From: a plasmid | Sequence record: NZ_CP139428.1 | Strand: one strand, 5' to 3' | Length of the DNA stretch: 64,000 bases | Translations under genes and position numbers: made by a program | Notes under the pieces: model-generated | Databases searched by the model: none | Told to the model about the DNA's origin: nothing | What the model saw: the letters and a program-made list of their open reading frames with translations, nothing else | Shown: positions 1,890-47,419 of the stretch, piece by piece | Position numbering within the stretch: position 1 is the stretch's first letter | How the letters are laid out: each line of letters begins with the position of its first letter

Positions 1890-2494
1890 TGAATTTCGGC
1901 TTTGGCTTTCGAATTATCCATTTCGACCACGCCACGTCCTTCGGACATGCAATCCCGGTAAACCTTGCGGTCTCGTACCACCGTGCTCATCAACCCCAAC
2001 TCAGGGAAGTCTTTAAGGTACTCTTTGGCTTCCTGGATCTCGTTGATGACTGGATTGGACGGCGCGAGCGTCAGCATGGCGATCGCCTTCAACTTTGGAT
2101 TGAGATCCTTAGCTTCCGTCATAATTTCTGTCAGCCGTGGCAGCGTATCTAAATCGGGTTGTGAAGGTCTGAATGGAACCAGCAGCACATCGGCTGATGT
2201 CATACCCGTTCTCAGCTCTCGACTGTCACGACCGGCTGTGTCAACAACCACATATTCGTAGCGCTTATCGAGGTCGAGTAGCGTATCGCGAATATTATCG
2301 AATTTCTGAATGCAATGAATAGGTGCTATGCCTTCGATCGCATTGCGGTCTGCAATCCAGTTAGATGCGGTTCCTTGACGGTCAGAGTCGACCAGCATCA
2401 CATCGTGCCCTTGTCGTGACAATTCAGCTGCAATATTGACTGCTGTCGTTGATTTACCGCAACCGCCTTTTTGACTTCCAATTAGTATAATCAT
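1859..2494 (-). CDS. parA: ParA/ParF-family partition ATPase
   Basis: Deviant Walker A KGGCGKST at the N-terminus and overall ParA/Soj architecture, 211 aa. Confidence 0.85.
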   Translation of the reverse strand: MIILIGSQKGGCGKSTTAVNIAAELSRQGHDVMLVDSDRQGTASNWIADRNAIEGIAPIHCIQKFDNIRDTLLDLDKRYEYVVVDTAGRDSRELRTGMTSADVLLVPFRPSQPDLDTLPRLTEIMTEAKDLNPKLKAIAMLTLAPSNPVINEIQEAKEYLKDFPELGLMSTVVRDRKVYRDCMSEGRGVVEMDNSKAKAEIQCLVKELMTW

Positions 2495-2599
2495 AGTGCT
2501 TAATTGGTTCCTTGTTGGCTCCTGTTGGGTATTAATTTAGTACCACTTTGGTGCTCTGTCAATACATTGTAGAACCTTAGTCTTAAGGTATAACCTGTT

Positions 2600-2960
2600 A
2601 CTATGGGCGTGCCCCGCTGGGGACGGCTGTCGTGCTGCGCAGGGAGCCGGCCGGCCGTCTCCCCCCTGCGGGCTTCCATCCTCACGCAACCCCGCTTGCA
2701 GCCGGCGATGCCGGCGCCGCACTCACTGTCCTGCAGCCAGGCTGCAGGACGCTGTTGACGCCCCGCCGGCCGCTGTCGCGCCGTCGTGTCGGGTTGATCC
2801 GTATTCAACCTTCCAGGGCGCTTTAGCCGCAGTCAGTCTTCCCGCCGCAACTGATAACAGCACAACGCCTCGCTTAAACACCAAGGGGTGTATGAACTCC
2901 GCCAAAAACTTTTTCCTCCCTTCGGTCAAAAAAACTTTTTGTCTCCGCCCCTTGGTGCCG
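2600..2960 (+). repeat. Repeat family copy R1: hairpin-rich element plus conserved leader (candidate single-strand promoter, Frpo/ssi-like)
   Basis: Shares core ggctgtcgtgctgcgcaggg ... gccggcgatgccggcgccgc ... cactg and a downstream block caaggggtg ... aaaactttttcc with copies at 6840-7239 and 9595-10029. Contains perfect palindromes GCCGGC-gat-GCCGGC and CCTGCAGCC-agg-CTGCAGG. Confidence 0.6.
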
Positions 2961-3042
2961 CTCTTCGCCGTGCTGAATCAGTTTATTGCGACGGCGAATA
3001 CTCACAGCGGCATCAGTTATCACCCCACGGAGGATTTCAACA

Positions 3043-3332
3043 TGGCTCAACAAAACGTCAACGGCGCGACAACGAAGCCTACAGCAGCATCCGCACAGAC
3101 CAGCAGTGCTCTGACCATACCGCAGGTGTATGACCTGTTTTGCTATGTGAAGGCGGTGTGCGGTCGCTCGACCGGCACCATTGAACCGCCGGTCGTACCG
3201 GCAGAGGCGGAAGAGGTGTTCGCGGACTTTGGGGATTTCGACACCATTTCGGTGTGGACTGTCGGAGGCTGGCCGGTGGCTGCCAGCGATCAGATGACGA
3301 TGACCCACTGGCGCATGAATTCAGGGCAATAA
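3043..3332 (+). CDS. Small hypothetical protein (cassette ORF 1) beginning MAQQNVNG
   Basis: ORF directly after R1 leader. Its N-terminal QNVN codons are shared with ORFs at 7240 and 10030. Confidence 0.4.
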
Positions 3333-3336
3333 AAAA

Positions 3337-3360
3337 GCGGCATCGCTGCCGCTTTCTCAC
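3337..3360 (+). terminator. Rho-independent terminator
   Basis: AAAAAAGCGGCA-tcgct-GCCGCTTT hairpin immediately after the ORF. Confidence 0.5.
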
Positions 3361-3424
3361 CGCCAGCGCGGAAGCGTCCACTTCTGTCGCTGGCTCAACA
3401 GGCAATTATCAACGGAGATACACC

Positions 3425-5476
3425 ATGTCTATGACTGAGTCTAAAGCACCAACCAAGGGCAAGACAACCCGTCCGGCCAAAACCACCAAGAAAAACGCTC
3501 TCGCGGAAAAAATCGAGGCGGCGCTGGCCAAGGCCGTGCGCAAAACCGCCACGCTCGGCCAGCTGGTGCTGACCGACCTGAACGTGCGCAAGAAAAAATC
3601 CTCGCAGACGTCGATCGAGGGGCTGGCCGCCGCCATCCGTTCAGCCGGTCTACTGATGAATCTGGTCGTGTTCGAAATGGACGATGGCCGCTACGGCGTT
3701 GCCGCCGGTGAGCGCCGCACGCTGGCGCTGCGCTGGTTGATGTCACTTGAGAACGACGCCGACAAGACCACCCCGGACGGCATCGTGACCGACGATTACC
3801 CGGTTGAAGTGCTGGTCGTCAGCAAGGCGATGGCGCGTGTGGTGTCGATGATGGAGAACAGCCAGCGCGAGCAGATGCACCCGGCCGATCAAGTCATGGC
3901 GTTCCGCGACCTGTCGGCAGACGGGCAAACCCCGGCACAGATCGGCGATCTGCTGGGGTTCAGCACGCGCCACGTTCAGCGATGCCTGCGTCTGGCGACG
4001 ATGGCGCCGGTGCTGCTCGACGCGCTGGCCGACGACCAGATCACCCTCGACCAGCTGCAGGCGTTGTCGGCCACCGAAGATCATCAACGTCAGTGTGACG
4101 TGTGGGAAAACGCGCACGGCTGGGCGGCCGCGCCGCAGCACCTGCGCGAGGCGGTGCTGAAAGGTGAAGTCTCGGCCAAAGACAACAGCCAGCTGGCGTT
4201 CGTCGGGCGCGAGATCTACGAGGCGGCGGGCGGCACCTTCAAATTCGACCTGTTTACCGACGAAGGCTTTTTGACCGAACCGGCGATGCTGGAGCGTCTT
4301 GCCCGTGAAAAGCTGCACGCGCTGGCGCAGCAGGTGGCCGAGAACGAGGGCTGGAGCTGGGCGGAAGGGCGCATTTCGGCCATTAAAACGTGGGGGGAGG
4401 ATGCGGAGATTTACCGCGAGCTGGCCGAACCTCAGCCGGAATTTACCGCTGACGAACAGGCCGAGATCGCCCGTCTGAAAGCGCGGTTCAGTGAGCTGGA
4501 AGCGGCATTCGAGGCGGCGGATGCCGATACCGATACCCACGCGCTGAACGTCGAAAGCGACGCTGTCGAAGCCGATATTGCGCGGTTGACCGCACAGGCG
4601 ATCATCCGTGCATGGCCGCAGGCGATGCGCAGCAGCGGCGGGGTAGTGGCGTCCCTGCGTAACGGGGAGGTGGTTTACCAGCGCGGGATCGTGCTGCGGG
4701 CGAGCGAAGCAACCGACAAGTCCGGGGATGACAACGGCGAGGGCGCAGCGACCACTGAAACGACGGCACCGAAACCCAAGGAGAAAGGGCTGTCGGCAGC
4801 GCTGATCACCAGCCTGTCGGCGGAACGCACACTGGCGGTGATGGGGGCGCTGGTCGAGAACCCGACCGTGGCGCTGGCGCTGCACACCCACACGCTGGTC
4901 GTGAAAGTGTTCGGTTCGCGCTACGCCGGATCGCTGTTCCAAACCAGCCTGACCCCAAAACGGGCGGAGCTGCTGACCAAAGCCCCGACGGCGGAAGGGA
5001 GCCGTGCCGATCGCCAGCTGGGCGAGCTGCACGCGCAGTGGGAGGCGAAATTGCCGCCGGAGTGGAATACCGATTTCACATGGTTGCTGACGTGGGAACA
5101 GGCCGAGGTCGTGGCGCTGCTGGCGTACTGCGTCGGCCTGTCGCTCGATGCCGTGCAGCTGTGGCCTGCGAAGGATGGCAAAGTCGGCGATGCCCTGACG
5201 CCGCTCGAGCACGCGCTGGACTTCACGCTGCGCGACTGGTGGCAACCGACCAAGGCCAATTACTTCGGGCGCATCAGCAAGGAGTTAATGAGCGATGCAC
5301 TACTTGATGCCGGGAAGGTGGCGCAGGCGGCCTCGGTGCTCAAGATGAAAAAGGGCGACGCCGCGCAGCTGGCCGAGGATGAACTGACCGCCAGCGGCTG
5401 GGTGCCGGAGTGCCTGCTGCCGGTGGCCGATGACATCACCACTTTACAGGACGCTGACAACAGCGCCGCCGCCTAA
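3425..5476 (+). CDS. ParB/Srx nuclease-domain protein, large leading-region type
   Basis: N-terminal ParB-like domain with GERRTLA (compare ParB GERRxRA). About 684 aa with an acidic C-terminus. RBS GGAG lies before the ATG at 3425. The provided ORF starts earlier at 3254. Confidence 0.7.
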   Translation: MSMTESKAPTKGKTTRPAKTTKKNALAEKIEAALAKAVRKTATLGQLVLTDLNVRKKKSSQTSIEGLAAAIRSAGLLMNLVVFEMDDGRYGVAAGERRTLALRWLMSLENDADKTTPDGIVTDDYPVEVLVVSKAMARVVSMMENSQREQMHPADQVMAFRDLSADGQTPAQIGDLLGFSTRHVQRCLRLATMAPVLLDALADDQITLDQLQALSATEDHQRQCDVWENAHGWAAAPQHLREAVLKGEVSAKDNSQLAFVGREIYEAAGGTFKFDLFTDEGFLTEPAMLERLAREKLHALAQQVAENEGWSWAEGRISAIKTWGEDAEIYRELAEPQPEFTADEQAEIARLKARFSELEAAFEAADADTDTHALNVESDAVEADIARLTAQAIIRAWPQAMRSSGGVVASLRNGEVVYQRGIVLRASEATDKSGDDNGEGAATTETTAPKPKEKGLSAALITSLSAERTLAVMGALVENPTVALALHTHTLVVKVFGSRYAGSLFQTSLTPKRAELLTKAPTAEGSRADRQLGELHAQWEAKLPPEWNTDFTWLLTWEQAEVVALLAYCVGLSLDAVQLWPAKDGKVGDALTPLEHALDFTLRDWWQPTKANYFGRISKELMSDALLDAGKVAQAASVLKMKKGDAAQLAEDELTASGWVPECLLPVADDITTLQDADNSAAA

Positions 5477-5517
5477 CCGACAGGGAGCTGCCGCCCATCG
5501 GGCGGCAGAAAACAGCG

Positions 5518-5958
5518 ATGAAAAATGCATTCAATCTGGAAACACTGACGGCGATGAGCGCCGACGAACTGGAGCAGTACCGCGATCGGGGCAGAGAGTA
5601 CCGGATGATGCTCAACTGCGCGGTGCTGGGGCAACTGGCGGTGCCGGAAGGCTGGCGCGTGGTGGCGGAAGAGGGCTGTGAGTTCTGCGGGCGCGTGCCG
5701 GTGGTGTGCCGGATAAGCCCGGCAGGGGATGAGGCGACGGCGCTCTATTTGTGCAGTGCGGGCGCGGAGGTGCCGAACTGGTCAATGACGCTGCCGTTTG
5801 ACGGCGGTCAGTCGCTGGCGTGGCTGTACCTGGATGAGTATTACACCCCGGCCACGGTCAACCGGGTGCTGCATACCGTGGCGGGCTATTACCAGCTGGG
5901 GTTCTGGCGGCCGGAAAAGTTGGCGGCGGCGCTGCGGATGGGAGGGCATTGCCTGTGA
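5518..5958 (+). CDS. Hypothetical protein
   Basis: ORF co-oriented with the leading-region genes. No motif recognised. Confidence 0.4.
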   Translation: MKNAFNLETLTAMSADELEQYRDRGREYRMMLNCAVLGQLAVPEGWRVVAEEGCEFCGRVPVVCRISPAGDEATALYLCSAGAEVPNWSMTLPFDGGQSLAWLYLDEYYTPATVNRVLHTVAGYYQLGFWRPEKLAAALRMGGHCL

Positions 5959-6680
5959 TCCCCCATCATCTCGCATTGGTGCCGTGGCACCCGTACCGGC
6001 AGGCCGTCTGGCAAGCCATCGCACAGGTCGAAGCCCGCCGTGAAGCTGGCAGGCGGTTATCCGCCTACCCGTATGCCACGGCGTTTTTCCGCCAGTTAAC
6101 CGGGCGGCTCACAATTTCAGCCAAGGACATCCGCATGATAGACGTGACCTACCGGCCCGGCGATCGCCGCCGCGCCACGCGCAAGGAAGACTATATCGAC
6201 GCGCTCGACATCCTGATTGCCAGCCGGGGGGAGCACTGTTATTCCCCGTTGCCGGGCGACACCCGTGACACGCTGTTCCCGGAAGTGAACCGCCGCCGCC
6301 GACAGCGCTTCGAACACCGGCTGACGATGAAACACACCCGTCAGGCGCGCATCGATGCCACACTCCGGCGGCACAAGCGGCGACGTTACCAGGTGCGGCT
6401 GGCGCAGGCGGAAGTCGAGCTGGCGTTCATCACGCCGGGCGAGCTTGACCGCTGGGTACGGCGTGCGCAGCAGCAGGGACTTGCCGAGGATGATTTGAGC
6501 GGGCTGGTGATGGCGTGGACGGCGCGGTTTCCGTGCCTTGCCGAATTGGATCGTTATCTTTGGGCTGACATGCCGTTCTGGGAGGCGCGTCTTCAGGTCA
6601 GTCTGATCAGCGCGGAGTTGTCCGCTGAAGCGCATATCGATAACGCGGCGCGGCTGCCGAATCGCCTGGTACGCCGCTAA
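5949..6680 (+). CDS. Hypothetical protein, basic and Arg-rich in the centre
   Basis: ORF co-oriented and overlaps the previous stop. Confidence 0.4.
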   Translation: MPVIPHHLALVPWHPYRQAVWQAIAQVEARREAGRRLSAYPYATAFFRQLTGRLTISAKDIRMIDVTYRPGDRRRATRKEDYIDALDILIASRGEHCYSPLPGDTRDTLFPEVNRRRRQRFEHRLTMKHTRQARIDATLRRHKRRRYQVRLAQAEVELAFITPGELDRWVRRAQQQGLAEDDLSGLVMAWTARFPCLAELDRYLWADMPFWEARLQVSLISAELSAEAHIDNAARLPNRLVRR

Positions 6681-6839
6681 ACCCCGGACAACAGGCTGCA
6701 GTGGCTGCGCCACTGCGGCTTGTTGCTCTCTGATCCCTGTGCCAGGCCTGTCTCTGCTTTCAGCAGGGGAGACGGTTCCTGTTGATAGAGTCACGGTGAC
6801 TGTTGGGCATGAATGTGCCGCTTCTAAACGACTTGCCTG

Positions 6840-7239
6840 GCGAAACGATGCGGCGCTGGGCGTCCGGGCGCGCTGTCGTGCTGCGCATGGCGCCGGCAAG
6901 CCGTCGCCCCCCTGCGGGCGTCCATCGCTGACGCGAAATACACGCTTGCAGCCGGCGGTGCCGGCGCCGCTTCTCACTGTTCCTCGCCCTGGCGAGGAAC
7001 GCTAAGGTCGCCACGGCTTATCGCCGCGTCGGGTGTGTTCCTGCTCATCTCACCGGTGGTTATCTCTCATCGGCCCTTACGCGGCCGCTTTTGTAGCACC
7101 GTCACCCGCGTGCCGCAAGGGTGAAATGCACGCCGCAAGCGGCGCCCTTGCGTTCCCCCGTTCGCCGTCGCTACGTCAGCTTTTTTGCCGCGAAAGGTTC
7201 CGACGAGAGATAAATCAACCACCGAAGAGGGATGCCAGC
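6840..7239 (+). repeat. Repeat family copy R2 (candidate single-strand promoter plus leader)
   Basis: Core and block B conserved with R1 and R3. Hairpins GCCGGC-ggt-GCCGGC and CCTCGCC-ctg-GCGAGG. Confidence 0.6.
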
Positions 7240-7704
7240 ATGAACACACAAAACGTCAACGTCAACACCGCCGCTCAGGAACGCTCTGAAAGATATGGGA
7301 AAAGATCCACTGTTACCGGATCGTCTGATGATTGGGATGTAAAAGCCTGCCTGTTCGTTACGCAGGCGATCGGCCGCTTTTCCGTCAAATTCTCGGCGCC
7401 CTGCATCGGGGGCACGGTGAACCTCAATTGCAGCCACATCACCAACGCCTGCAATCCGTTTGATGCCGTAATGCGATTTGCGCGCGAAACCCGCGCGCAG
7501 GGATGCACGGTGTACGCCGTGGAACAGGTCGAGCCTGTGCGCCCCGTTTGCCTGAGCACAACCGGGTATCGCTTTATGCAAAAAGGCTTCATCTGGCTGT
7601 GTCTTGATACCGGCGTTTTCGTCGAGGTGTCAGACGATGGCCGGATGCGGCGCGGGGACGATGGCCGTACGTTGCCTTGCTACGGCACGTTAACCCGCAT
7701 TTAA
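7240..7704 (+). CDS. Hypothetical Cys-rich protein (cassette ORF 2) beginning MNTQNVNVN
   Basis: ORF directly after R2, sharing the ATGAACAC(A/G)CAAAACGTCAAC start with the ORF at 10030. Confidence 0.45.
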   Translation: MNTQNVNVNTAAQERSERYGKRSTVTGSSDDWDVKACLFVTQAIGRFSVKFSAPCIGGTVNLNCSHITNACNPFDAVMRFARETRAQGCTVYAVEQVEPVRPVCLSTTGYRFMQKGFIWLCLDTGVFVEVSDDGRMRRGDDGRTLPCYGTLTRI

Positions 7705-7740
7705 CCGGTGGCAAGCCACCCTAACCGAGGAGAAAAAACG

Positions 7741-8088
7741 ATGTATCAGACCGAAATCAGCACCGAAAACCGCATGGCGTGGGATGCGAGCACCGAGGCC
7801 GCGTACTGGCAACGGCGCGAGCAGCAGGCACGCAGCGACGTGGAAGAAATCACGCTGGCGGCGTTTATGGATGCCATCGCAGTGATGTACCCGAAAGACT
7901 GGGAGGGCGACGCACATAGCGAAACTTTCAAGCTGGCCGAAATGTACTGCGGGGACGTTGCCTACATTTTTGCAAAAGTCGGCGATCGCTATTTTAAGTT
8001 CCGCGATGTGGTGACGTTATCGCACAGCGCCATTCTGGCGCGGATCAATAAGGAGGTGTTAAGCCGGGAGACGCAAGCCCGTAAATGA
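7741..8088 (+). CDS. Hypothetical protein
   Basis: ORF starting MYQTEIS. No motif recognised. Confidence 0.4.
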   Translation: MYQTEISTENRMAWDASTEAAYWQRREQQARSDVEEITLAAFMDAIAVMYPKDWEGDAHSETFKLAEMYCGDVAYIFAKVGDRYFKFRDVVTLSHSAILARINKEVLSRETQARK

Positions 8089-8177
8089 AAAAAGCAGCGT
8101 TTCCGCTGCTTCCTCATGCCGGTTTACCCCTAGGAAAGTTAGACCGGCGTTCTATCAAACTACATGGAGTCTCAACC

Positions 8178-8441
8178 ATGAAATCAACAGACCCAAGCAT
8201 CATGACAGTAACCGACGAGTATGTAAAGCGCCTGCAGGCTGAGTGCGAGCAGGTGAAACGCCAGCGGCGGATCGCGCGCGGCGATATAGCCGCCGCCGAC
8301 GTCGATCCGGATCTACGGTCGTTCGGGCGTCATATCGCCGGATGTGTTCGAAAGGGCAAATCGGTGCGGGTGCCGTCGATGCGGGGCAGTGAGTGGGGGC
8401 ACGTTCTGCGTGCGCTGGAGTTAACGCGGGCGATGGCCTGA
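8178..8441 (+). CDS. Small hypothetical protein
   Basis: ORF starting MKSTDPS, co-oriented with neighbours. Confidence 0.3.
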   Translation: MKSTDPSIMTVTDEYVKRLQAECEQVKRQRRIARGDIAAADVDPDLRSFGRHIAGCVRKGKSVRVPSMRGSEWGHVLRALELTRAMA

Positions 8442-8492
8442 TAACGCGAGCCGCCCCGTATCGGGGCGGCTATTCACTGACCCGGAGGTTAA

Positions 8493-9293
8493 TTGATGTC
8501 ACAACTCTCTTTTGATGCCCTGTTTTCCGTGCCCGTCGATGCGGTGCGCCCGGCGGAAAAGAACGTCAGGGCTGATGCGGTCGAACCTTCAAAACCCGCC
8601 GACCCTGTACCGGGACGGAAGCGGACAATCACCGGCGATGATCCGCGCAAGGCGTTTTTGAGTACGTTTCGTGAAACGGCGCGTTATCACCATCGCTACG
8701 AAGTGTTCAGCGATTTTGTGAAACTGACGGCCTGTGCGCTGGAAAATCTGCTGTTAAAGTCGCCGGACATCGAGGCGGAGTATCTGGCCACCATCCAGCG
8801 CTATGAAAAAGCCGACCAGCAGCGCATGGCGCAGTTGTATTCATGGCTGATCATCGGGCTGGATCAGGACATGGGGGATTTTCTCGGATCGCTGTTTATG
8901 GAGCTGGAGCTGGGCAGCGGCAACATCGGCCAGTTTTTCACGCCGTTCCATCTCTCCGAACTGATGGCGGGACTGGTAGCCGGTGATCGGCTGGCGGCGT
9001 TGGACAATGAGCCGTATATCACGCTGTCCGAACCGACCTGCGGCGCGGGCGGGATGGTGATCGCGTTTGCCAAAGTGATGCTGGCGCGCGGATATAACCC
9101 GCAAACGCAGCTGCGCGCCGACTGCGTGGACATCGATCCGGTGGCGGCGCGGATGTGTTACATCCAGTTGTCGCTGCTGGGTATACCGGCGCGCGTGGTG
9201 ATCGGCAACAGCCTGACACTGACCTATCAGCGCGAGATGTATACGCCGTTCTGGTATCGCGTGACGTCCACGCGCTGGCCGATGTATCGCTAA
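8493..9293 (+). CDS. N6-adenine methyltransferase-like protein of the HsdM family: SAM-binding half only, no catalytic NPPY/F motif
   Basis: Motif X-like GQFFTP, motif I EPTCGAGG, and following DCVDIDPVAARMCYIQLSLLG block resembling HsdM. The ORF ends at 266 aa without motif IV. Confidence 0.6.
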   Translation: MMSQLSFDALFSVPVDAVRPAEKNVRADAVEPSKPADPVPGRKRTITGDDPRKAFLSTFRETARYHHRYEVFSDFVKLTACALENLLLKSPDIEAEYLATIQRYEKADQQRMAQLYSWLIIGLDQDMGDFLGSLFMELELGSGNIGQFFTPFHLSELMAGLVAGDRLAALDNEPYITLSEPTCGAGGMVIAFAKVMLARGYNPQTQLRADCVDIDPVAARMCYIQLSLLGIPARVVIGNSLTLTYQREMYTPFWYRVTSTRWPMYR

Positions 9294-9473
9294 CACCCGA
9301 GGCGGGCAGGGCGATCCTGCCCGATAACGCATGGCAGAAAACGACACGTTGCCGTTACCGGGCGAATTTACCGATCGGGGCGGAAACACGGGGCGTTTGA
9401 TGACGACGCCGTGTGCTACCTGGAAACGGTGGCTACGGTCAGCACCGCGCGGTAAAAGACGAACAGAATGAAA

Positions 9474-9503
9474 GGCCGGTGCCTGCGGCACCGGCCATTC
9501 TTT
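9474..9503 (+). terminator. Rho-independent terminator
   Basis: GGCCGGTGCC-tgc-GGCACCGGCC followed by ATTCTTT. Confidence 0.55.
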
Positions 9504-9594
9504 CCCTTCTCGCACACTGTCAAAAAGACCTGGTGGCGGTTTTTCTACCTCTCCCTCGCCGGCTGCCGGTATTTCTGCGGTGAACCGGGTTTTC

Positions 9595-10029
9595 GCATGA
9601 TGCCTGGGCGTGCCCTTCGGGCCCGGCTGTCGTGCTGCGCAGGGAGCCGGCACGCCGTCTCCCCCCTGGCGGGCTTCCATCCGTCACGCGATGGGCACGC
9701 TTGCAGCCGGCGATGCCGGCGCCGCTTTTCACTGTCCCTCGCCCAGGCGAGGAACGCTAAGGTCGCCCCGGCTTGTCGCCGTGTCGGCCGTGTTCCTCCT
9801 CGCTGCGTTTCCGGTGCGCCATCGGACGGCCGTTCCCCGGCGGAGGGCTGTTCGTAGCACCGTCGCGTCGCCCCGCAAGGGGTGAAATGCACTTCACCGA
9901 AAACTTTTTCCAGGTAAAAACTTTTCGTCTCGCCCCTTGCGTGTCTCCTTACGCCGTTGCTCCGTCGCCCTTTGCCGCCAGGGAACTCACCGAACGATGG
10001 AATAACCACCAGAGAGGAGCAAGAGCAGG
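9595..10029 (+). repeat. Repeat family copy R3 (candidate single-strand promoter plus leader)
   Basis: Most similar to R2. Hairpins GCCGGC-gat-GCCGGC, CCTCGCC-cag-GCGAGG and GGTGAA-atgcac-TTCACC. Confidence 0.6.
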
Positions 10030-10401
10030 ATGAACACGCAAAACGTCAACACCGCCACCAAAGAATCTTCCAAACGATGGGCGGGAAAATACCCCGATGC
10101 GGAAAACATCATGATCCGTCAACTGGCATTGATGGAGGAATTACACGGCGTGTATTTGTCCCCTGACGAACTGGCGCAATCGCTGTATGAAATTTTTAAC
10201 ACGATGACGGATCGGGTGGTGTTTAACGGCGTCGATAACTCGCCGTCCGATAAACCGAAAATTGCGTATGCCGTCGCGCAACATTGGATTAAGGCGCAGC
10301 GTCTGGCCGGTACGTATTTTGGCGAGACCGGCATCGTTGCCTGGGAACATGCGCGTTATCGGCTGCACCTTCAGCTGGCTATCAATCACTCATACCGTTA
10401 A
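10030..10401 (+). CDS. Hypothetical protein (cassette ORF 3) beginning MNTQNVNTA
   Basis: ORF directly after R3. Confidence 0.45.
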   Translation: MNTQNVNTATKESSKRWAGKYPDAENIMIRQLALMEELHGVYLSPDELAQSLYEIFNTMTDRVVFNGVDNSPSDKPKIAYAVAQHWIKAQRLAGTYFGETGIVAWEHARYRLHLQLAINHSYR

Positions 10402-10457
10402 TTCATCGCCGGTCTAAAAAAAGTGTCCGGCATTACTCAAAGAGAAAGGAGAATATC

Positions 10458-11285
10458 ATGCGTCTGACTTCCCGTTTTGGCCGTTATAACGCTATCCGTA
10501 AAGACCGTCCATTAACCAACGACGAATTAATGAACGTGGTGCCGAGTGTGTTTTCAGAAGATAAACACGATTCGCGCAGTGACCGCTATACGTATATTCC
10601 CACCATTACGCTGCTGGATAAATTACGCGAGGAAGGTTTTCAGCCGTTTTATGCCTGCCAGACGCGCGTCCGGGATGAAAGCAAACGCGGCCATACCAAA
10701 CACATGCTGCGGCTGCGTCGGGAAAATATGATTGTCTCCGGCAATAAGGAAGTCCCCGAAATCGTATTATTGAACAGCCACGACGGGAGCAGCAGTTACC
10801 AAATGATCCCGGGGATGTTCCGCTATGTCTGTGCTAACGGAATGGTATTTGGTCAATCGTTCGGTGATGTTCGTGTGCCGCATAAAGGGGATGTGGTCGG
10901 GCAGGTGATTGAGGGCGCCTATGAAGTGCTCGGCATATTTGACCGCGTCGATAATGACCTCGATACCATGAAATGCATTTCACTGACCGAGCGCGACCAG
11001 GAATTATTTGCGCGGGCGGCGTTAAGTTATCGCTACGAGTATGAAGATAAATCCCCGATCACGCCATCGCAAGTTTTGCGTCCGCGTCGGCGTGAAGATT
11101 ACGGCAATGATTTATGGACGACATTCCAGCGCGTTCAGGAAAACATGATTAAAGGCGGATTACCCGGTAAAAGCGTGACCGGTAAAAATACCCGTACTCG
11201 GGCGGTCAACGGTATCGATGGCGATATAAAACTGAACCGTGCGTTATGGCTGATTGCGGATGAATTCAAAAACCGAATGAAGTAA
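10458..11285 (+). CDS. DUF932-family protein (YfjQ/YafZ-like), common in plasmid leading regions and CP4-57-like islands
   Basis: N-terminus MRLTSRFGRYNAIRKDRPLT and length about 275 aa match my memory of the E. coli YfjQ family. Confidence 0.65.
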   Translation: MRLTSRFGRYNAIRKDRPLTNDELMNVVPSVFSEDKHDSRSDRYTYIPTITLLDKLREEGFQPFYACQTRVRDESKRGHTKHMLRLRRENMIVSGNKEVPEIVLLNSHDGSSSYQMIPGMFRYVCANGMVFGQSFGDVRVPHKGDVVGQVIEGAYEVLGIFDRVDNDLDTMKCISLTERDQELFARAALSYRYEYEDKSPITPSQVLRPRRREDYGNDLWTTFQRVQENMIKGGLPGKSVTGKNTRTRAVNGIDGDIKLNRALWLIADEFKNRMK

Positions 11286-11386
11286 CAGGTTGCCCCGGTA
11301 ATGACGCCCATCAATACCGGGGCCGAACACTGCTACAGAACGTACAGTTAATACAACGCGGACAGTATGAAATAACGAGGTGAAAG

Positions 11387-11683
11387 ATGCAAACGGAAAA
11401 TTTACGGGTATGCAGTACGGCACATTTTACATCGGAAGATAACGAGCTGTTAGCGACAATGGCAGGGCAGGCGGGTCTTAGTTCCTGGGTGGTTAACATC
11501 CAGTACGGTTATATTCTGGTGCTGACGGATTATCGCTGGCGGCTGCGGGTATTAAAGTCGCAAGGAGCGTCAAAACCGCTGAGGCGGTTTCTAATTCACC
11601 AGATAAAATATCACCGTACAGGCTACATCCATTTTGATTGTGATGCATCCATTCTTGCCGGCCACGAGGTTTTTGAGTGGTAG
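11387..11683 (+). CDS. Small hypothetical protein
   Basis: ORF only. Confidence 0.3.
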   Translation: MQTENLRVCSTAHFTSEDNELLATMAGQAGLSSWVVNIQYGYILVLTDYRWRLRVLKSQGASKPLRRFLIHQIKYHRTGYIHFDCDASILAGHEVFEW

Positions 11684-11970
11684 CGCGCTGATAAGAGTCG
11701 TCCCCATCGAGGGGGCGTCTCTTATTCTCCCCGCCCGCCCAGCGGGAAATAAATTTCCCGCTCCCGCTGCCCCAAAGGGGCGCCCTGGTTAGCACCCAAA
11801 AAACGGTAACGTTTTTTGGTGGTGTTCGTTAACTTTGCGATCCGCTTACCCACATCTACACAATCGACGTTATTTCACCTTGCCCCGGTGAAATAACCGC
11901 TCCCGTTCGTTTCCCATTAAGGGGAATGGGAAACCTCACTGGCTTTGTCTTATGTGCATATGTGGATAAA

Positions 11971-12441
11971 CTACGGGTTCTGGACGAGGAGGGGTTGCTG
12001 CTTGCTGGCTTTTATCGCCCGGTAGGTCTTTTCGATTTTGCGTGCATACTTATAACGTCGTTGCGCCTGCTTAGGCGAATCTTTAAATCCTGCATTATAA
12101 GCCCCCACTGCCTGCCAGGTCGCTCCCCACTTCTTAAAGGCAATCGCGAGATAATAAGCACCGGTGTAGATGTTCATGCACGGATCTTGCTTCAGGTGAC
12201 GTTCTGAAACCCCAATCGATGAGAGCGAGTTAAAGTGCTGGGAGTCAATTTGCATTAACCCGACGCCGTACCCTGTTGTAGGATTTGGGCCGATAGCCAC
12301 GGGATTAAACCGTGACTCGTTCCATGAAATAGCACGCAGCAGATCCGGGTCGATGTGATAATCACGACCCGCCATGTCAAAACAATCAGCCATAGCGGCC
12401 GTTGAACTGAATAGCATTAACGCTGCGATGAGGTTCTTCAT
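11971..12441 (-). CDS. Lytic transglycosylase of the F orf169 / R1 P19 type, with signal peptide
   Basis: [10 protein letters not shown] ... GLMQI (the E-S ... GLMQ Slt catalytic motif), an N-terminal signal sequence, and a position adjacent to oriT. Confidence 0.8.
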
Positions 12442-12449
12442 GGTATCCT

Positions 12450-12860
12450 TAAAATCCCTAGCCCTGGTGAAAATCTAGCCTTTTCGGGATCTCGAGTCAA
12501 CAAATTCGCGCTCTTTGGGGTAACAGCATCACACCCCACGCAAAATTGTATTTTTCAGAATTATTATTTTAAAACAGTTGGTTACGCGCTTTAAGTTGTT
12601 GTTGTATTTTTACATGGCAAGAGATTAGAGTTGTAAAGGACTCTAACTAGAGTCGTTATTCAAGTTTATACACAACTCTACATAGAGTTATCACTAAATT
12701 TCAAATAGATAAACAGACTCGACCCTAGAGGCGAGTTGTATTTTTTTGCTTTTATAGTTATCATTAGACTCGCAATTAGAGTCGGATTTGATTCGTGCAT
12801 GCCAACTCAAAATACATACAGATTATCTGTCAGCTAATAATGTCATGGAGTAAAAATTAT
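12450..12860 (-). other. Origin of transfer (oriT) of F type. The nic site is on the minus strand near 12530, and transfer proceeds toward lower coordinates.
   Basis: The reverse complement of 12519-12548 reads TTTGCGTGGGGTGT/GATGCT. This matches the F nic consensus TTTGCGTGGGGTGT/GGTGCT. The region is AT-rich and is followed by TraM operators. Confidence 0.7.
12620..12790. promoter_or_regulatory. TraM binding sites: four GACTC-N6-GAGTC inverted repeats upstream of traM
   Basis: GACTCtaactaGAGTC, aACTCtacataGAGTt, GACTCgaccctagagGCGAGT and GACTCgcaattaGAGTC. Confidence 0.55.
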
Positions 12861-13259
12861 ATGGCAAGAATTCAAGCATATGTCAGCAAGGAGGCGGTTG
12901 AAAAGATTCATGCAATTGTTGAACAGCGCCGTCAAGAAGGGGCTGCTGAAACTGAAGTAAGTACATCTAGTGTTATTTCTATGCTTCTTGAACTCGGTCT
13001 CAGAGTCTATGAGGCACAGATGGAAAGAAAAGATGACCCTTTTAATCAGACGGAGTTTAACAAAACTCTTTTGGAAAACGTATTGAAAACTCAACTTGCA
13101 ATGGCAAAGGTTCTTGGTGCAAGTACTCTAGCTCCACATGTTGCAGATAAACCAAAACTTAATAACTATCAGCAGATCATTTCAGAAATAAACGAATCTG
13201 TTAATGATAAGTTAGAGAGATTTTTTATTGGTGTTGATTCAGATAGTACTAACGAATGA
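12861..13259 (+). CDS. traM: TraM relaxosome accessory protein
   Basis: MARIQAYVSKEAVEKIHAIVEQRRQEG ... SMLLELGLRVYEAQMERK aligns closely with F TraM MAKVNLYISNDAYEKINAIIEKRRQEG ... SMLLELGLRVHEAQMERK. Confidence 0.85.
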   Translation: MARIQAYVSKEAVEKIHAIVEQRRQEGAAETEVSTSSVISMLLELGLRVYEAQMERKDDPFNQTEFNKTLLENVLKTQLAMAKVLGASTLAPHVADKPKLNNYQQIISEINESVNDKLERFFIGVDSDSTNE

Positions 13260-13325: not shown

Positions 13326-13688
13326 CTATTTGTTTAGACAGTCAATTATTTCAATTGCTAGTCGTTTGGCATCTTCAACTTTTTTAGCTAATTTTTTCTC
13401 TTCTATTACTGAACTGTAGAATTTATTTTTGGAGGGATTTGTTCTGTTTCTATGCATTTCAAGAAGATCTGTCGCTAAATCATCATCTATCGTATAGAAG
13501 TAATACTCTGGGTAATCCAATAAGTTGGCTATTTTTACTACTAAGCTGAAAGGTGGTTCTGTTCTGCCGACTTCGTAACTTGACAGTCTTGAGCTTGAAT
13601 TGGCCCCTTGTATACCTACAAGTTCAGCTAACTGCTCCTGTGTATAACCACTTGATATTCTGGCATCTTTTAGTCTTTTTGGTATCAT
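13326..13688 (-). CDS. HTH XRE-family transcriptional regulator (Cro/cI-like)
   Basis: GYTQEQLAELVGIQGANSSSRLSSYEVGRTEPP helix-turn-helix. RBS AAGGAGG lies before the ATG at 13688. Divergent from the next regulator. Confidence 0.65.
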   Translation of the reverse strand: MIPKRLKDARISSGYTQEQLAELVGIQGANSSSRLSSYEVGRTEPPFSLVVKIANLLDYPEYYFYTIDDDLATDLLEMHRNRTNPSKNKFYSSVIEEKKLAKKVEDAKRLAIEIIDCLNK

Positions 13689-13859
13689 GGTCCCCTCCTT
13701 TATTATGATTTTACATAGTGTTAGGAGGTGAAAAATCCACATAATCAAGAACTGTTGATAATGTGTAGTTCATGCTGTGCTATGTTTATTTCATCATCTG
13801 ATGTCTTTCATGTATCATCTTTTGACTAACCATCACTATTATTTGATCATGAGTATGCC

Positions 13860-14456
13860 ATGAATAATACCGAGATAATAAAAAAGAATATAAATTACCT
13901 TCTTTCTTCGAGAAAGGAAACACAAGTTTCTTTGAGTGATGGTGCCGGTGTTAATCGAACTACTATATATAAGATCCTTGAAGGTAGGGTAGAGCGCGTT
14001 CAAGAAAATACTCTTCGAAAAGTAGCCGGATTCTTTGGTGTTTCATTTAAAGAAATTCAATCTGTTGATTTACAAGAAAAGGAGTTATCTAATAAGTTAG
14101 TAACCATTGATGGTAACATGAACCCGTTGGCGGTTCCGATTATTAAAGATACAACTATACTCTCAGCAGTAAATGCAAAAATTGGACGGTTAGTTATGTC
14201 GTCACCTATAACTTATTTCTTCGGTGAAGGTCCTAATGTAGTTGGAATACTTCTAACAAAAGAGATAAAAGGATACTATAATAAAGGTGATGTGATCATC
14301 GTTCGCCGTGAGGCTATCATTCATGAGGCAAATGTTCTTGTGGTTACTTCAAGCAAAAGTTTAAAGGTGATTGATGGTAGTTCGGCTCATTTAGTTGCTG
14401 AGGATGTTGTTGGTACAATAATCGAGGAAAGGTATGGAAGCGAATATAAAATATAA
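13860..14456 (+). CDS. LexA/cI-like repressor: N-terminal XRE HTH plus C-terminal S24 peptidase-like domain
   Basis: N-terminal HTH (VNRTTIYKILEG). The C-terminal VMSSP ... KGDVIIVRREAIIHEANVLVVTSSKSLKVI block resembles the LexA/cI autocleavage domain. Confidence 0.55.
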   Translation: MNNTEIIKKNINYLLSSRKETQVSLSDGAGVNRTTIYKILEGRVERVQENTLRKVAGFFGVSFKEIQSVDLQEKELSNKLVTIDGNMNPLAVPIIKDTTILSAVNAKIGRLVMSSPITYFFGEGPNVVGILLTKEIKGYYNKGDVIIVRREAIIHEANVLVVTSSKSLKVIDGSSAHLVAEDVVGTIIEERYGSEYKI

Positions 14457-15291
14457 GCTAATTGGATTTGATATCCTCAATGGAAAAGCTAACGTTATGG
14501 TGTTGAATACTGGGCGGGTTATGTCAATGCCATACGAAAGACTACTATCTTCAGAGGTGATTGATGATTTTAACGCTAGAGAAGTGTCGGCGGTTTGTCG
14601 AAAAATATATAGCTCTGGTGAAAGTGTTAAAACTGAATATGAGTTTAAAGATAGAAATGAAAAGCAGTGGTTAACTTATGTTGCTTTTTGTTTGGTTATT
14701 AGTGTTTGTTATATATTTAGTAATATAGCTGCAGTCAAACCAGTTCACATACAATACTTTGATCTTATCATTACGCCTGGTACTTTTGTTTACCCGTTTA
14801 CATTCTTAGTAGTAGATCTTCTGAATGAATTTTATGGATTTAGGCTGGCAAGAAAAGCCATCTATATGTGTGTTGTTGCTAATGCGGCAATATTAGGGTT
14901 GCTTTATGTTTCTCTGAAGTTACCTGTTATACCTGAATGGATATTCAATGGTCCATATAATAGCCTTATTAATCAAATACAATCAACATTTCTTGCATCA
15001 ACTATAGCATTTCTTACCTCCGAGCTGGCTAATTCATATGTGCTTTGTAAAATCAAAGAACTGACTAATTCTCGCTACTTATATATAAGGATTCTTTCCA
15101 GTATATTCGTGGCCTCTGTTATAGATAGTGTTGTCTTTTGTTTCATAGCTTTCAGTGGTTTGATGACAAACGAACAAATAATAGGAATTATCGCCGTTCA
15201 AGTAATAATTAAGTTAGCGTATGCACTTGTTAATGTTTTTCCTGCGTATGGAGCAAGGTATCTATTTAATAAATACCTCACTCAAGAATAA
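14434..15291 (+). CDS. yhhQ: YhhQ-family (DUF165) queuosine-precursor transporter with an extra N-terminal domain of about 85 aa
   Basis: YPFTFLVVDLLNEFYGFRLARKAIY and the C-terminal VQVIIKLAYALVNVFPAYG segment align with E. coli YhhQ FPFIFLATDLTVRIFGAPLARRIIF ... VDYCFKVLISIVFFLPMYG. Confidence 0.65.
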   Translation: MEANIKYKLIGFDILNGKANVMVLNTGRVMSMPYERLLSSEVIDDFNAREVSAVCRKIYSSGESVKTEYEFKDRNEKQWLTYVAFCLVISVCYIFSNIAAVKPVHIQYFDLIITPGTFVYPFTFLVVDLLNEFYGFRLARKAIYMCVVANAAILGLLYVSLKLPVIPEWIFNGPYNSLINQIQSTFLASTIAFLTSELANSYVLCKIKELTNSRYLYIRILSSIFVASVIDSVVFCFIAFSGLMTNEQIIGIIAVQVIIKLAYALVNVFPAYGARYLFNKYLTQE

Positions 15292-15302
15292 TATTTAATT
15301 AG

Positions 15303-16004
15303 TCATAAGGCCTGTTTTTTTTGCAGGCTTTTTTTTATTTCTTCTTTGTTTTGTACGTATTCATTAAACCCTCTCAATCGTAGAAAACATGCGTCGCATT
15401 TCCCACACCCAAAACTTTTAACTCCATTGTAACAAGTTAAAGTTTCATCTCTGATGAGTTCCAAACATCCCATATTGTCTGCTAATGCCCATGTTTCAGC
15501 TTTGTTTAATGACATTAGTGGCGTTACAAACTTGATATCTCTTCCTATTCCTAAACTTACTGCGTGGTTTAACGCTTTCACAAAAACATCACGGCAGTCC
15601 GGGTATCCTGAAAAATCAGTCTCACAAACACCTGTTATTACGTCTTTCGCATTTACTTGAAATGCATAGATGGCGGCAAGGGTAAGGAATACGATGTTTC
15701 TGCCAGGAACAAACGTTGATGGTATTCCATCCGAATCAGCATTTTTGTGCTCGGGCACTTCAATCTCATTTCTAGTCAAACTACTTATTGCTAACTCATT
15801 GATTACATTAACATCTAGAATTTTATGTGAGCTTACGTTTAGCTTCTTTGCAAGTTGCTCCGCTATTTTAATTTCTTCACTGTGGCGCTGGCCGTAGTCG
15901 AAGGTTAAACAGTGCACGGAGTCATACTCAGCGAGAGCCTTCACTAAGCATGTAGTTGAATCTTGACCTCCACTGAATACAACTACTGCTGTTTTTCCTG
16001 ACAT
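15303..16004 (-). CDS. queC: 7-cyano-7-deazaguanine synthase QueC
   Basis: [16 protein letters not shown]-loop and C-terminal CxxC zinc motifs, 233 aa. Confidence 0.9.
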
Positions 16005-47147: not shown

Positions 47148-47359
47148 GTCGCCGCTGATGTTACTAACCGCTTCGCACTTTGCCCAGGCCTCGTTACTTG
47201 ACCAGGTGACGATCGCCACGGCCGCGGGGCGCGTTGTCCGCTTTACCGATATGATGGCTTTTGGTAGAGTGGGAAAAATTTTGCATTCGATGGTTGTCCA
47301 CGCCAGAAGGTGGACGGGATGGAGCGGAGCTCCAGACGCAAAAACCCCCGGATTACGCA

Positions 47360-47419
47360 TGAACTTTGGTCGGTACGCGCGTAAATCCGGGGGTCACAAG
47401 CAGGCCTGCCGCCTGTAAG
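47360..47419 (+). CDS. Candidate 19-aa leader peptide upstream of repA
   Basis: MNFGRYARKSGGHKQACRL sits where IncFII replicons have the tap leader. Inferred. Confidence 0.25.

Follow-up and report, generated by a model that had tools for sequence, protein, structure and literature searches.

The leading region of the plasmid in record NZ_CP139428.1 contains three direct repeats, R1, R2 and R3, that are very probably diverged members of the class 1 single-stranded DNA (ssDNA) promoter family, to which Frpo1 and Frpo2 of F (ssiD, ssp1) and ssi1–3 of ColIb-P9 and pESBL belong. The window, that is, the whole stretch of DNA that was analysed, is 64,000 nucleotides long. An initial annotation had named the repeats Frpo/ssi-type elements from their architecture and had disclaimed sequence identity. 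That assignment is now supported by direct profile homology, together with orientation, position, a hairpin on the transferred strand and compensatory changes. The assignment is most secure for R3 and R1, whereas R2, which has a short apex, may be weaker or altered. Repeated leading-region Frpo/ssi elements have been described since 1997–1999 and were validated in vivo in 2023–2025 (PMC9849209, PMC12672017, PMC3817090). The device is already known, and the current picture of leading-region working is unchanged.

The repeats and their place in the leading region

Each of the three repeats is approximately 470 nt long and all are found in one common orientation: R1 at 2597–3075, R2 at 6849–7275 and R3 at 9600–10065. 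Their similarity is far above chance. A repeat search showed that the blocks common to the copies comprise 55 nt (82–89% identity, three copies), 28 nt (96–100%) and 140 nt (86%, R2 and R3), and a three-way MAFFT alignment has a mean column identity of 75% over approximately 450 columns. R2 and R3 are 69% identical. When a family profile was compared to both strands of the whole 64 kb, exactly three matches were obtained and all were on the minus strand: 10064–9603 (R3, E = 6.8e-95), 3073–2602 (R1, E = 1.3e-90) and 7273–6852 (R2, E = 2.1e-75). The copies had been placed at 2600–2960, 6840–7239 and 9595–10029 by the initial annotation, which was right about three repeats in the same orientation but not about their extent. 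The units are longer, and reach approximately 35–45 nt into the first open reading frame of each operon, past the ATG codons at 3042, 7240 and 10030. Each unit thus takes in the ribosome-binding site, and also a GTTGACGTTTTG motif that is conserved. In Rfam, no family reaches its gathering score in the repeats, and no match with an E-value up to 1 overlaps them.

The transferred strand is defined by the nick site. At 12529–12548, the plus strand contains CATCACACCCCACGCAAA. Its reverse complement is TTTGCGTGGGGTGT|G, the nick consensus of F; read on the minus strand, the nick region is TTTGCGTGGGGTGT|GATGC, in agreement with a nic site previously placed on that strand at about 12530. The strand that is nicked, and hence transferred, is therefore the minus strand, which enters 5′ first, toward decreasing coordinates. 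This region also contains traM (approximately 12861–13259) and an SLT transglycosylase gene (11971–12441, minus strand), arranged as in F. The repeats are 2.5, 5.3 and 9.5 kb from the nick site at approximately 12.53 kb, which puts them in the leading region (within about 10–13 kb of the nick).

The genes around the repeats are those of a leading region: psiB, psiA, ParB-like, DUF932 and methylase genes. They form three operons, all on the plus strand. R1 is followed by orf96, the ParB-like gene, psiB and psiA (3042–6680; Pfam ParB_N, PsiB and PsiA), R2 by orf154, orf115, orf87 and an N6-adenine methylase gene (7240–9293; Pfam N6_Mtase), and R3 by orf123, DUF932 and DUF5983 (10030–11683; Pfam DUF932). 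The earlier statement that all genes here are on the plus strand holds from 3042 to 11683, but not for the SLT transglycosylase gene adjoining oriT. The hairpin-forming sense of R1–R3 is that of the nicked minus strand, and the downstream genes are templated by the transferred strand. At ten other plasmid loci, all full-length or near-full-length copies have this same orientation with the leading genes on the opposite strand in every case, and in the 11 plasmids (this one included) every copy found is an operon head, start codon included.

Kinship to known leading-region elements

A profile made from R1–R3 only was compared to the leading region of F, where it matched at two sites only: 8091–8586 (Frpo2, E = 2.2e-30) and 13480–13976 (Frpo1, E = 3.3e-27). 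These matches cover model positions 10–458, which is the full length, and the published F ssiD sequence maps to the same sites. Conversely, an F-only profile run against the 64 kb identified R3 (E = 8.9e-24) and R1 (E = 1.1e-13), both over their full length, and R2 (E = 3.6e-7), all on the minus strand, and nothing else. The match in R2 is to the distal block alone, as the hairpin part was not matched by the F-only profile. The repeats are collinear with Frpo1 (ssiD, ssp1a) and Frpo2 (ssp1b) over approximately 470–500 nt, including a part beyond the published 351-nt ssiD, and in their orientation to the nick site they agree with F and likewise with ColIb-P9. In position, R1 is the counterpart of Frpo2, before ParB-like/psiB/psiA, and R3 is the counterpart of Frpo1 (ygeA–ygeB), before a ygeA-like open reading frame and DUF932. 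There are also differences. The global identity of the repeats to F Frpo is only 53–59%, there are three copies in the window versus two in F, and R1 is not followed by an ssb gene, unlike F. In addition, the distance from the GTTGACGTTTTG motif to the start codon is approximately 75 nt greater in F and, therefore, GTTGACGTTTTG is located within the first codons here.

In the IncI1 plasmids ColIb-P9 and pESBL, ssi1–3 are three dispersed 328-nt direct repeats that head three leading-region operons, one of which is psiB–psiA (PMC3817090, PMC12672017). The window likewise has three dispersed direct repeats heading three leading-region operons, one with psiB–psiA, and the apex and central hairpin are common to R1–R3 and ssi1–3. 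The plasmid backbone is unlike that of ColIb-P9 and pESBL, being MOBF/MPF_F. Aligned to F Frpo and to ColIb ssi, as had been proposed, the repeats display full-length profile homology to the former and a weaker similarity to the latter: with a profile of F ssiD and ssi1–3 alone, the single match is to the apex region of R3 (E = 2.9e-6).

Judged by sequence similarity, the nearest published sequences are the Frpo* candidates of Samuel et al. 2024. R3 is 74–80% identical to Frpo*5/6 (S. enterica AAEPNF010000010.1, which carries Frpo*5–7) over 262–398 nt (blastn, E = 1e-62), and the distal blocks of R1–R3 match Frpo*2 from an insect metagenome. Structure and weak box matches were the grounds on which the Frpo* elements had been put forward, with a rating of low certainty and only distant likeness to Frpo (Samuel et al. 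2024), whereas the window repeats are tied to F Frpo1/2 by profile homology and covariation. The class 2 and class 3 ssDNA promoters (ssp2 before ardB/klcA and ssp3 before a methylase gene; Wen et al. 2025) share the concept and the leading-region location, and R2 heads a methylase operon, like ssp3 in F and pESBL. Membership in these two classes was considered and rejected, as the window profile has no match in F upstream of antirestriction or methylase genes; kinship to ssp2 was likewise rejected, as nothing in the window matches insect Frpo'4, the counterpart of F ssp2.

A long hairpin on the transferred strand

When the transferred strand was folded as DNA, each copy formed an imperfect hairpin of 229–298 nt. 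That of R1 is 298 nt long (2774–3071, minus strand; minimum free energy of the unit −130 kcal/mol, 93 nested pairs, z = −4.6 versus shuffles) and encloses the complement of the ribosome-binding site and ATG (3030–3044) and of the first codons. The hairpin of R2 is 229 nt (7027–7255, minus; 78 nested pairs, z = −4.5) and that of R3 about 255 nt (9787–10045, minus; z = −5.8). In a scan of the 10 kb leading region, R1, R2 and R3 were the three strongest 300-nt folds, with R2 the strongest at −92.6 kcal/mol. Strongest 300-nt folds are also what was used to find such promoters in pESBL (PMC12672017).

The long hairpin is kept through evolution by compensatory changes. Among 20 homologues, 81.4% of cells were paired, compared to 40–51% for slid partners, and 64 pairs had changed on both sides, compared to 24–37 in slid controls. 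The covariation score was 0.282 versus 0.07–0.09 for the slid controls, and the observed values were reached by none of 500 shuffles. In all 20 sequences, folding favours the transferred strand over its complement by 9.5–30 kcal/mol. The excess of G–T over A–C pairs was 142 versus 58, a figure that carries a bias, as it was from folds of the transferred strand that the structure was obtained. As inverted repeats fold as RNA too, structure alone is no proof of a role at the DNA level.

The apex of the hairpin differs between the copies. In R1, it is an A/T-rich palindrome, CAAAAACTTTTT ... AAAAACTTTTTG (2902–2941, minus; helix 9, 92% paired), which in alignments is common to F Frpo and ColIb ssi. 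R3 has its A/T-rich apex palindrome at 9899–9927 (minus), and positions 182–213 of F ssiD match R3 9909–9878 at 87.5%. R2 is without this apex and has a short GC-rich one, CGCCGCAAGCGGCG (7132–7145, minus), within its long hairpin. Accordingly, the second block that the initial annotation had assigned to all copies is there in R1 and R3 but only by half in R2, where gcaagggtgaaatgcac is present and the aaaactttttcc (A/T-rich) palindrome is replaced by the short CGCCGCAAGCGGCG hairpin. Adjoining the apex is a conserved motif that alignment and folds identify as unpaired. On the transferred strand it reads GTTCATACACCC in R1 (2886–2897, minus) and GTGCATTTCACCC in both R2 (7119–7131, minus) and R3 (9880–9892, minus), the last being identical to F Frpo1. 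In R1, it belongs to the better conserved stretches of the alignment, and several of its columns are nearly invariant. Both the A/T-rich apex and the unpaired GTGCATTTCACCC motif are found in the long hairpin of F Frpo as well.

Two further palindromes are present in each copy. The first is a small hairpin that reads GCGGC-GCCGGC-ATC-GCCGGC-TGC in R1 (2698–2720, minus) and has counterparts, by alignment, covariation and fold, in R2 (6948–6970, minus) and R3 (9703–9725, minus). Its position is conserved and its stem sequence covaries between plasmids (helix 14; both-sided change in 6 of 9 pairs, 83.5% paired), the stem variants being GCGACCG/CGGTCGC, GCATCC/GGATGC and GCGTCC/GGACGC. The second is variable (helix 13; both-sided change in 4 of 8 pairs): CCTCGCC..GGCGAGG in R2 (6980–6999, minus) and R3 (9736–9754, minus) is replaced by CCTGCAGCC-A-GGCTGCAGG in R1 (2730–2748, minus). 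These palindromes are as first described, with GCCGGC-N3-GCCGGC in all three copies and the replacement in R1 at the same place.

It had also been anticipated that the stem would contain −35/−10-like elements; in class 1 promoters, the stem restores sigma-70 −35 and −10 boxes and has mismatches close to −10. The long, stable, imperfect hairpin was borne out in each copy, but a clean −35/−10 in the stem cannot be pointed to. The best transferred-strand −35/−10 pairs in the repeats score 7.2, 8.7 and 4.6 bits. For the window, the median is 6.1 and the 90th percentile 10.0, and no pair in the repeats rises above this background. With the same scoring, the validated F Frpo1/2 reach only 6.3 bits and, therefore, box scoring has little power. 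The best box match of F, TTGAGA-N17-CATCAC, aligns with a degenerate GTGAGT or GTCGGA in the window repeats. On the minus strand, R1 contains TTGACG-N16-TGAAAT (7.2 bits) and R2 contains TTGACG-N17-CATGCT over the start codon (8.7 bits). The plus strand between 2400 and 12900 has no sigma-70 consensus promoter, and within the repeats this strand gives promoter scores lower than the median of the window.

Proposed mechanism, alternatives and meaning

The activity that defines class 1 promoters is transcription, stimulated by SSB, from ssDNA and not from dsDNA. In F, early expression in vivo is lost when Frpo1 or Frpo2 is deleted (PMC9849209). The start sites of the pESBL class 1 promoters were mapped by 5′ RACE (PMC12672017), and an anti-CRISPR driven by Frpo is effective only if placed on the transferred strand of the leading region (PMC11541004). 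By analogy to these systems, R1–R3 would recruit RNA polymerase and support ssDNA-specific transcription, priming and shut-off as follows. During conjugation, the minus strand would enter the recipient 5′ first from the nick at approximately 12.5 kb, and each repeat, once inside, would fold into an imperfect hairpin of 230–300 nt, whose base would include sequence complementary to the ribosome-binding site, to the start codon and to the first 9–11 codons of the first gene of the operon. The hairpin would serve as a double-stranded entry point for host sigma-70 RNA polymerase on ssDNA that is otherwise coated with SSB. Transcription would then copy the transferred strand toward oriT, making the mRNA of the three operons (ParB-like/psiB/psiA, the methylase operon and orf123/DUF932/DUF5983) before the complementary strand exists. 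The same RNA would be able to prime complementary-strand synthesis, and duplex conversion would remove the hairpin and shut the promoters off.

Outside the long hairpin is a promoter-distal block of approximately 100 nt, which corresponds to the core of the initial annotation. It is found at 2600–2692 in R1 (minus; ..GATGGAAGCCCGC..GGAGACGGC..GCCGGCTCC..GCAGCACGACAGCC.. on the transferred strand), 6852–6940 in R2 (minus; alignments, blastn and the F-only profile) and 9603–9692 in R3 (minus; alignments and blastn), and is also conserved in F, downstream of both Frpo copies. By blastn, it has matches in 3,345 plasmid records, and other plasmids carry an alternative allele. Its conservation is one of sequence rather than structure, and no strand asymmetry was seen in its folding. 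In an IncN plasmid, a close relative of the block stands alone at a leading-region intergenic site, detached from the long hairpin. After it come a perfect palindrome and a gene that, unlike in the window, is on the same strand as the block. Relative to the transferred strand, the sense of the lone block is apparently unchanged, although its neighbouring gene runs the opposite way. The Frpo hairpin module itself has two forms, one having the A/T-rich apex and one lacking it, and each of the two sequence clades contains both. It is possible, if unlikely, that the repeat is a composite of two separable modules, the Frpo hairpin and the GATGGAAGCCCGC...GCAGCACGACAGCC distal block, with the block being an independent signal on the incoming single strand. 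It could be, for example, a site for priming or for the loading of polymerase or SSB, or it could block replication and so prolong the single-stranded state of the adjacent promoter.

The literature places the CUP (conserved upstream) regulon in the IncN region that contains this lone block (PMC3490853, PMC6289460), and the site is a candidate CUP. CUPs are described as ArdK-repressed duplex promoters, repeated ahead of the ard/ccg genes, and such a close relative would fit R1–R3 being conventional double-strand regulatory cassettes of the same kind, in which a promoter with a repressor operator, repeated before each leading-region operon, is induced in the recipient by the transient absence of the repressor. 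This is improbable, as the repeats contain no plus-strand sigma-70-like promoter above background and there is no ArdK-like repressor gene among the genes checked. Further, a duplex operator does not require a 230–300 nt hairpin that is kept by compensatory changes and is steadily more stable on the transferred strand, nor would it account for full-length homology to F Frpo1/2, which were shown to work from ssDNA (PMC9849209).

It is a little less probable still that the repeats are priming signals only (single-strand initiation), which make a short primer RNA and no operon mRNA. F Frpo was reportedly first isolated by Masai and Arai in 1997 (cited in PMC9849209) as ssiD, an RNA polymerase-dependent priming signal, which favours such a role. 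So do ssp1/Frpo transcripts, which are indicated to prime conversion in vivo (bioRxiv 10.64898/2026.01.09.698686). However, priming is an added role and not an exclusive alternative. Every copy is directly upstream of an operon and contains the ribosome-binding site and start codon of that operon, no other promoter is visible for the three operons, and the downstream genes in F depend on Frpo1/2 (PMC9849209).

Transcripts of any inverted repeat fold too, and the structure might instead act as RNA, either as an element of the sense-mRNA 5′ UTR or as a duplex-transcribed, minus-strand antisense RNA that silences leading genes in established cells. The minus-strand promoter-like matches in R2 and R1 would read into the element. 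Here, the evidence makes either role highly improbable: sense RNA is the complement of the transferred strand and folds 9.5–30 kcal/mol worse in 20 of 20 homologues, and the antisense matches are below the 90th percentile of background and absent from R3 and F (11-nt spacing, or a poor −10). Finally, intergenic imperfect palindromic repeats of a few hundred nt are typical of mobile or selfish elements (MITE-like, ERIC-like) and Frpo repeats are known recombination substrates (PMC3817090), but that the copies are such elements or recombination scars is scarcely credible, given one orientation relative to oriT and an operon-head site including the start codon in all copies of 11 plasmids, no terminal inverted repeats at the unit ends, no target duplications seen and no copy elsewhere in the 64 kb. 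With a stable hairpin predicted on the transferred strand and copies that are not IS/MITE-like, the earlier assignment stands.

As members of class 1, the repeats extend the F/IncI element, at 53–59% identity, to plasmids of Serratia, Klebsiella, Enterobacter and Yersinia. In BLAST-based surveys, these diverged copies rank no higher than low-certainty candidates; they would be recovered by a profile or covariance model. Mutagenesis can be guided by the parts that are conserved, namely the GTGCATTTCACCC motif that is left unpaired, the region of the embedded start codon, and the distal block. Single-strand promoters allow SOS inhibitors, methylases and anti-defence genes to be expressed in the first minutes after entry, ahead of host defences, and are possible targets against the spread of resistance plasmids.

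Three direct repeats at the heads of leading-region operons

The leading region carries three direct repeats, R1 (2597-3075), R2 (6849-7275) and R3 (9600-10065), each of which heads an operon. The family profile gives exactly three matches in 64 kb, all on the minus strand (R1, 3073-2602; R2, 7273-6852; R3, 10064-9603), which bears out the three copies recognized in the initial annotation, and the pairwise global identity between them is 60–69%. The repeat unit itself stands but its extent does not: it is ~470 nt long and reaches into the first 9–11 codons of the operon's first ORF. Similarly, the second block ascribed to every copy is present in R1 and R3, whereas in R2 its A/T-rich half is missing. 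The palindromes are as described in both the sequence and the alignments, and R1 indeed has another palindrome at the corresponding position. R2 is the least certain of the three copies, because its apex is missing and its similarity is weaker.

A megablast search with 2300-12800 matched 143 plasmid records, mostly Serratia, 11 of which have at least 80% coverage at ~93–96% identity. In pSERAS01, an annotated relative typed as MOBF/MPF_F, the gene order is parA-parG, a small ORF, a ParB-like gene, psiB, psiA, three small ORFs, an N6-methylase gene, a small ORF, DUF932, DUF5983, an SLT transglycosylase gene (on the opposite strand) and traM, which is the leading-region layout of F (NC_002483). 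Within the window, the corresponding Pfam matches are ParB_N/HTH_ParB, PsiB, PsiA, N6_Mtase and DUF932. In the interval from the SLT gene to traM, the plus-strand sequence is ...GCATCACACCCCACGCAAAATTG, and its reverse complement, CAATTTTGCGTGGGGTGT|GATGC, fits the F-type nick sequence. As this match sits on the reverse complement of the plus strand, the nicked strand is the minus strand. Its 5' end leads towards decreasing coordinates and, as originally proposed, the first DNA to reach the recipient is 2600-12450, in minus-strand form.

On either side of parA/parG lie clusters of TGGTG...TTTTGGTGTT-type repeats (516-692, 1557-1596 and 2483-2555), probably the partition centromere. Just past traM and two HTH regulator genes lie a queuosine-precursor transporter gene and queC (~14434-16004), an unusual cargo at the start of the transfer region. 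An Rfam match to PK-repBA, the pseudoknot regulating repBA (47342-47466, 70.6 bits), marks a replicon control region of the IncI/IncFII type.

Relationship to the Frpo family

Known Frpo/ssi sequences and new candidates were taken from Supplementary Table 2 of Samuel et al. 2024 (PMC11541004), and by blastn these match the window on the minus strand only. Here, R3 is 74–80% identical to S. enterica 'Frpo*5/6' over 262-398 nt (E ~1e-62), its apex is matched by F ssiD, and the distal blocks of R1, R2 and R3, which form the promoter-distal end of each repeat, are all matched by insect 'Frpo*2'. A profile built from the three window copies only was searched against 18 kb of the F plasmid and matched, over model positions 10-458, only at 8091-8586 (E 2.2e-30) and 13480-13976 (E 3.3e-27). 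F ssiD maps to the same two places, whose positions upstream of ssb and of ygeA identify them as the Frpo2 and Frpo1 sites described by Couturier et al. (PMC9849209). In the reverse search, an F-only profile recovered R3 and R1 at full length and the distal block of R2, with no other match in the window.

Initially, the Frpo assignment was made without claiming sequence identity; the reciprocal profile searches strengthen it to homology, with 53–59% identity. At this level of identity, BLAST-based surveys therefore rate such copies merely as low-certainty candidates. The blastn and profile comparisons with F and with the sequences of Samuel et al. ruled out class 2 or class 3 identity for R1-R3, and no Rfam family was found in the repeats, either at the gathering score or in a second scan at E up to 1. 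Sequence comparison thus places R1-R3 in the Frpo family as new, diverged members.

Matches to R3 occur in 4,273 plasmid records (blastn, distant mode). Ten leading regions were compared: those of F, a second E. coli IncF plasmid, Klebsiella, two Enterobacter species, Yersinia (with a MOBP/MPF_I backbone), an unclassified Enterobacteriaceae strain, two Serratia plasmids and a Proteus IncN plasmid. There are one to four profile copies per locus, with the IncN locus having a distal-block match only. All full or near-full-length copies lie in the transferred-strand sense, and the leading genes are encoded on the complement. The window also resembles IncI1 plasmids, in which three dispersed Frpo-like repeats at the heads of leading-region operons have been published (PMC3817090, PMC12672017).

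Structure of the repeat unit and its strand bias

Read 5' to 3' on the transferred strand, the unit begins with GTTGACG(TTGACG)TTTTG, which overlaps codons 4-9 of the first ORF in the window copies, whereas F has it in the 5' UTR. This is followed by the complement of the start codon and RBS, the left arm of a long imperfect hairpin, and the apex. In R1 and R3 the apex is an A/T-rich palindrome (AAAAAGTTTTT...) that F and ColIb share; R2 instead has a short hairpin, CGCCGC-TTGC-GGCG, of a type also present in Yersinia, other Serratia copies and insect Frpo'5/6. An unpaired motif, GTGCATTTCACCC, which is among the family's more conserved blocks, precedes the right arm, at the base of which a pseudo-copy (..GGAGGAACAC..CGACACGGCG) of the RBS/ATG region base-pairs with the genuine RBS/ATG. 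Two small hairpins, with stem sequences that vary between plasmids, and the distal block of ~100 nt complete the unit.

The first ORFs downstream of R1-R3 are otherwise unrelated to each other and to F ygeA, their sole likeness being M-x-x-Q/R-N-(x-x)-V-N-x-A at the start (window 3042-3070, 7240-7275 and 10030-10060; fetched F locus 14033-14065). These codons lie in the hairpin base, and therefore it is the DNA that dictates them. An upstream ORF was considered and rejected: the plus-sense GGGGTGAAATG resembles an RBS and ATG in a frame that runs to each main ORF, and in the alignment this ATG is absent from ~40% of homologues. The RefSeq annotation of a relative starts the ORF behind R1 at an ATG within the hairpin (window 2892; 2892-3332, 146 aa), while the SD-preceded ATG at 3042 would give 96 aa. 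The ORFs after R2 (7240-7704) and R3 (10030-10401) are named 'protein TraE' and 'dehydrogenase' and have no Pfam match. Both names and the 146-aa call are likely annotation artefacts.

The expected stable hairpin is predicted in the transferred strand of each copy, with z-scores relative to shuffles of -4.6 (R1), -4.5 (R2) and -5.8 (R3). A homology-free scan of 2000-12700, using 300-nt windows, DNA parameters and a threshold of -75 kcal/mol, as was done earlier to find the pESBL ssDNA promoters (PMC12672017), returned R1 (-81.6 kcal/mol), R2 (-92.6) and R3 (-84.5) as the strongest transferred-strand folds, with GC-corrected residuals of about 2.5–3.7 sd. Separately, a fourth hairpin-rich stretch, folding as five or six separate hairpins, occurs on the minus strand between the DUF5983 and SLT genes (11684-11975; -70.1 kcal/mol, z -7.6). 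In F, ssiE (D90180, which maps to 15373-15562 of the fetched F locus) lies at the corresponding intergenic site. The window stretch shows no similarity to ssiE by blastn and may be an analogous single-strand initiation site.

To assess covariation, 20 non-identical homologues were aligned. Run on the raw MAFFT alignment, RNAalifold recovered hardly any consensus, owing to apical indels, and individual folds were projected onto the alignment instead, yielding 108 consensus pairs. Paired cells amount to 81.4%, compared to 40–51% when partners are slid by 1–3 columns, a percentage that is inflated as the structure was derived from the same 20 sequences. Less exposed to this bias is the excess of two-sided changes, which occur in 64 pairs versus 24–37 for slid partners; the covariation score is 0.282 versus 0.07–0.09, and the observed values were reached by none of 500 shuffles. 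In all 20 homologues the transferred strand is more stable than its complement, by 9.5–30 kcal/mol, which argues for selection on the transferred strand and against a sense-RNA structure.

A sigma-70 weight matrix was applied to 27 family members to assign promoter boxes. On neither strand of the repeats does any -35/-10 pair exceed background; as validated F elements reach only 6.3 bits, this is not evidence against function. The best match in the F hairpin, TTGAGA-N17-CATCAC in the left arm, aligns with GTGAGT-N17-CGACGG in R3, GTGAGT...TAAACT in R1 and GTCGGA in R2. The sole recurrent strong match, TTGACG-N17-CATxCT, was rejected as the family promoter: it combines the conserved motif with the complement of the start codon, its spacing varies (11, 16 or 17 nt), R3 and F lack it, and transcription from it would run antisense. 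In the window, the weak minus-strand matches over the start codons of R2 (7237-7265, TTGACG-N17-CATGCT) and R1 (3033-3061, TTGACG-N16-TGAAAT) fall below the 90th percentile of background and would read antisense into the repeat in duplex DNA.

These results bear on other readings of the repeats. A role as priming signals only does not compete with the promoter reading; priming is a further function of the same family. Duplex, CUP-like promoter/operator cassettes are disfavoured, as the repeats hold no plus-strand promoter above background and the long hairpin is both strand-biased and covarying. Also disfavoured is a role of the structure in RNA, against which stand the folding bias towards the transferred strand and the inconsistency of the antisense promoter-like match across copies. 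A MITE-like origin is excluded, as the copies have no terminal repeats or target duplications and are invariant in orientation and position.

The distal block and the Frpo family

The distal block, called the core in the initial annotation, lies outside the long hairpin and beyond the published 351-nt ssiD. In F it is present after both Frpo copies, as in the window repeats, and it is matched in 3,345 plasmid records (blastn). In many relatives a different module, TTGACCTTCGCCATCAGACCCTAGCCG..GGCCCGAAACC..GGGTTCGGCGGAG, replaces the block as its alternative allele (CATCAGACCCTAGCC...CCGAAACC; 3' ends of the repeats in six other fetched plasmid loci, L003, L004, L005, L008, L009 and L010), so that the promoter-distal end of the repeat comes in at least two forms.

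In the IncN plasmid NZ_CP070575.1, the block occurs without the rest of the repeat at 9000-9090. A terminator lies between stbC and the block, and beyond the block come a perfect palindrome, TGGATTGCACAATCCA, and, on the same strand, a SprT-like gene; there are four places of this kind in the record. The site at 9000-9090 probably falls within the region of CUP repeats known from IncN plasmids (PMC3490853, PMC6289460). An R388-type nick sequence, sought in the IncN locus to fix the transferred strand, gave no match. With low probability, the block could be a separate single-strand signal; a strand-specific structure was rejected, as its fold energy does not differ between strands.

By analogy with relatives in F and IncI1 plasmids, where function has been demonstrated experimentally, R1-R3 are predicted ssDNA promoters. 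With these copies, profiles connect the 'Frpo*' candidates to F Frpo1/2 and compensatory changes support the hairpin; the short-apex variant and the distal block are further additions to the family.
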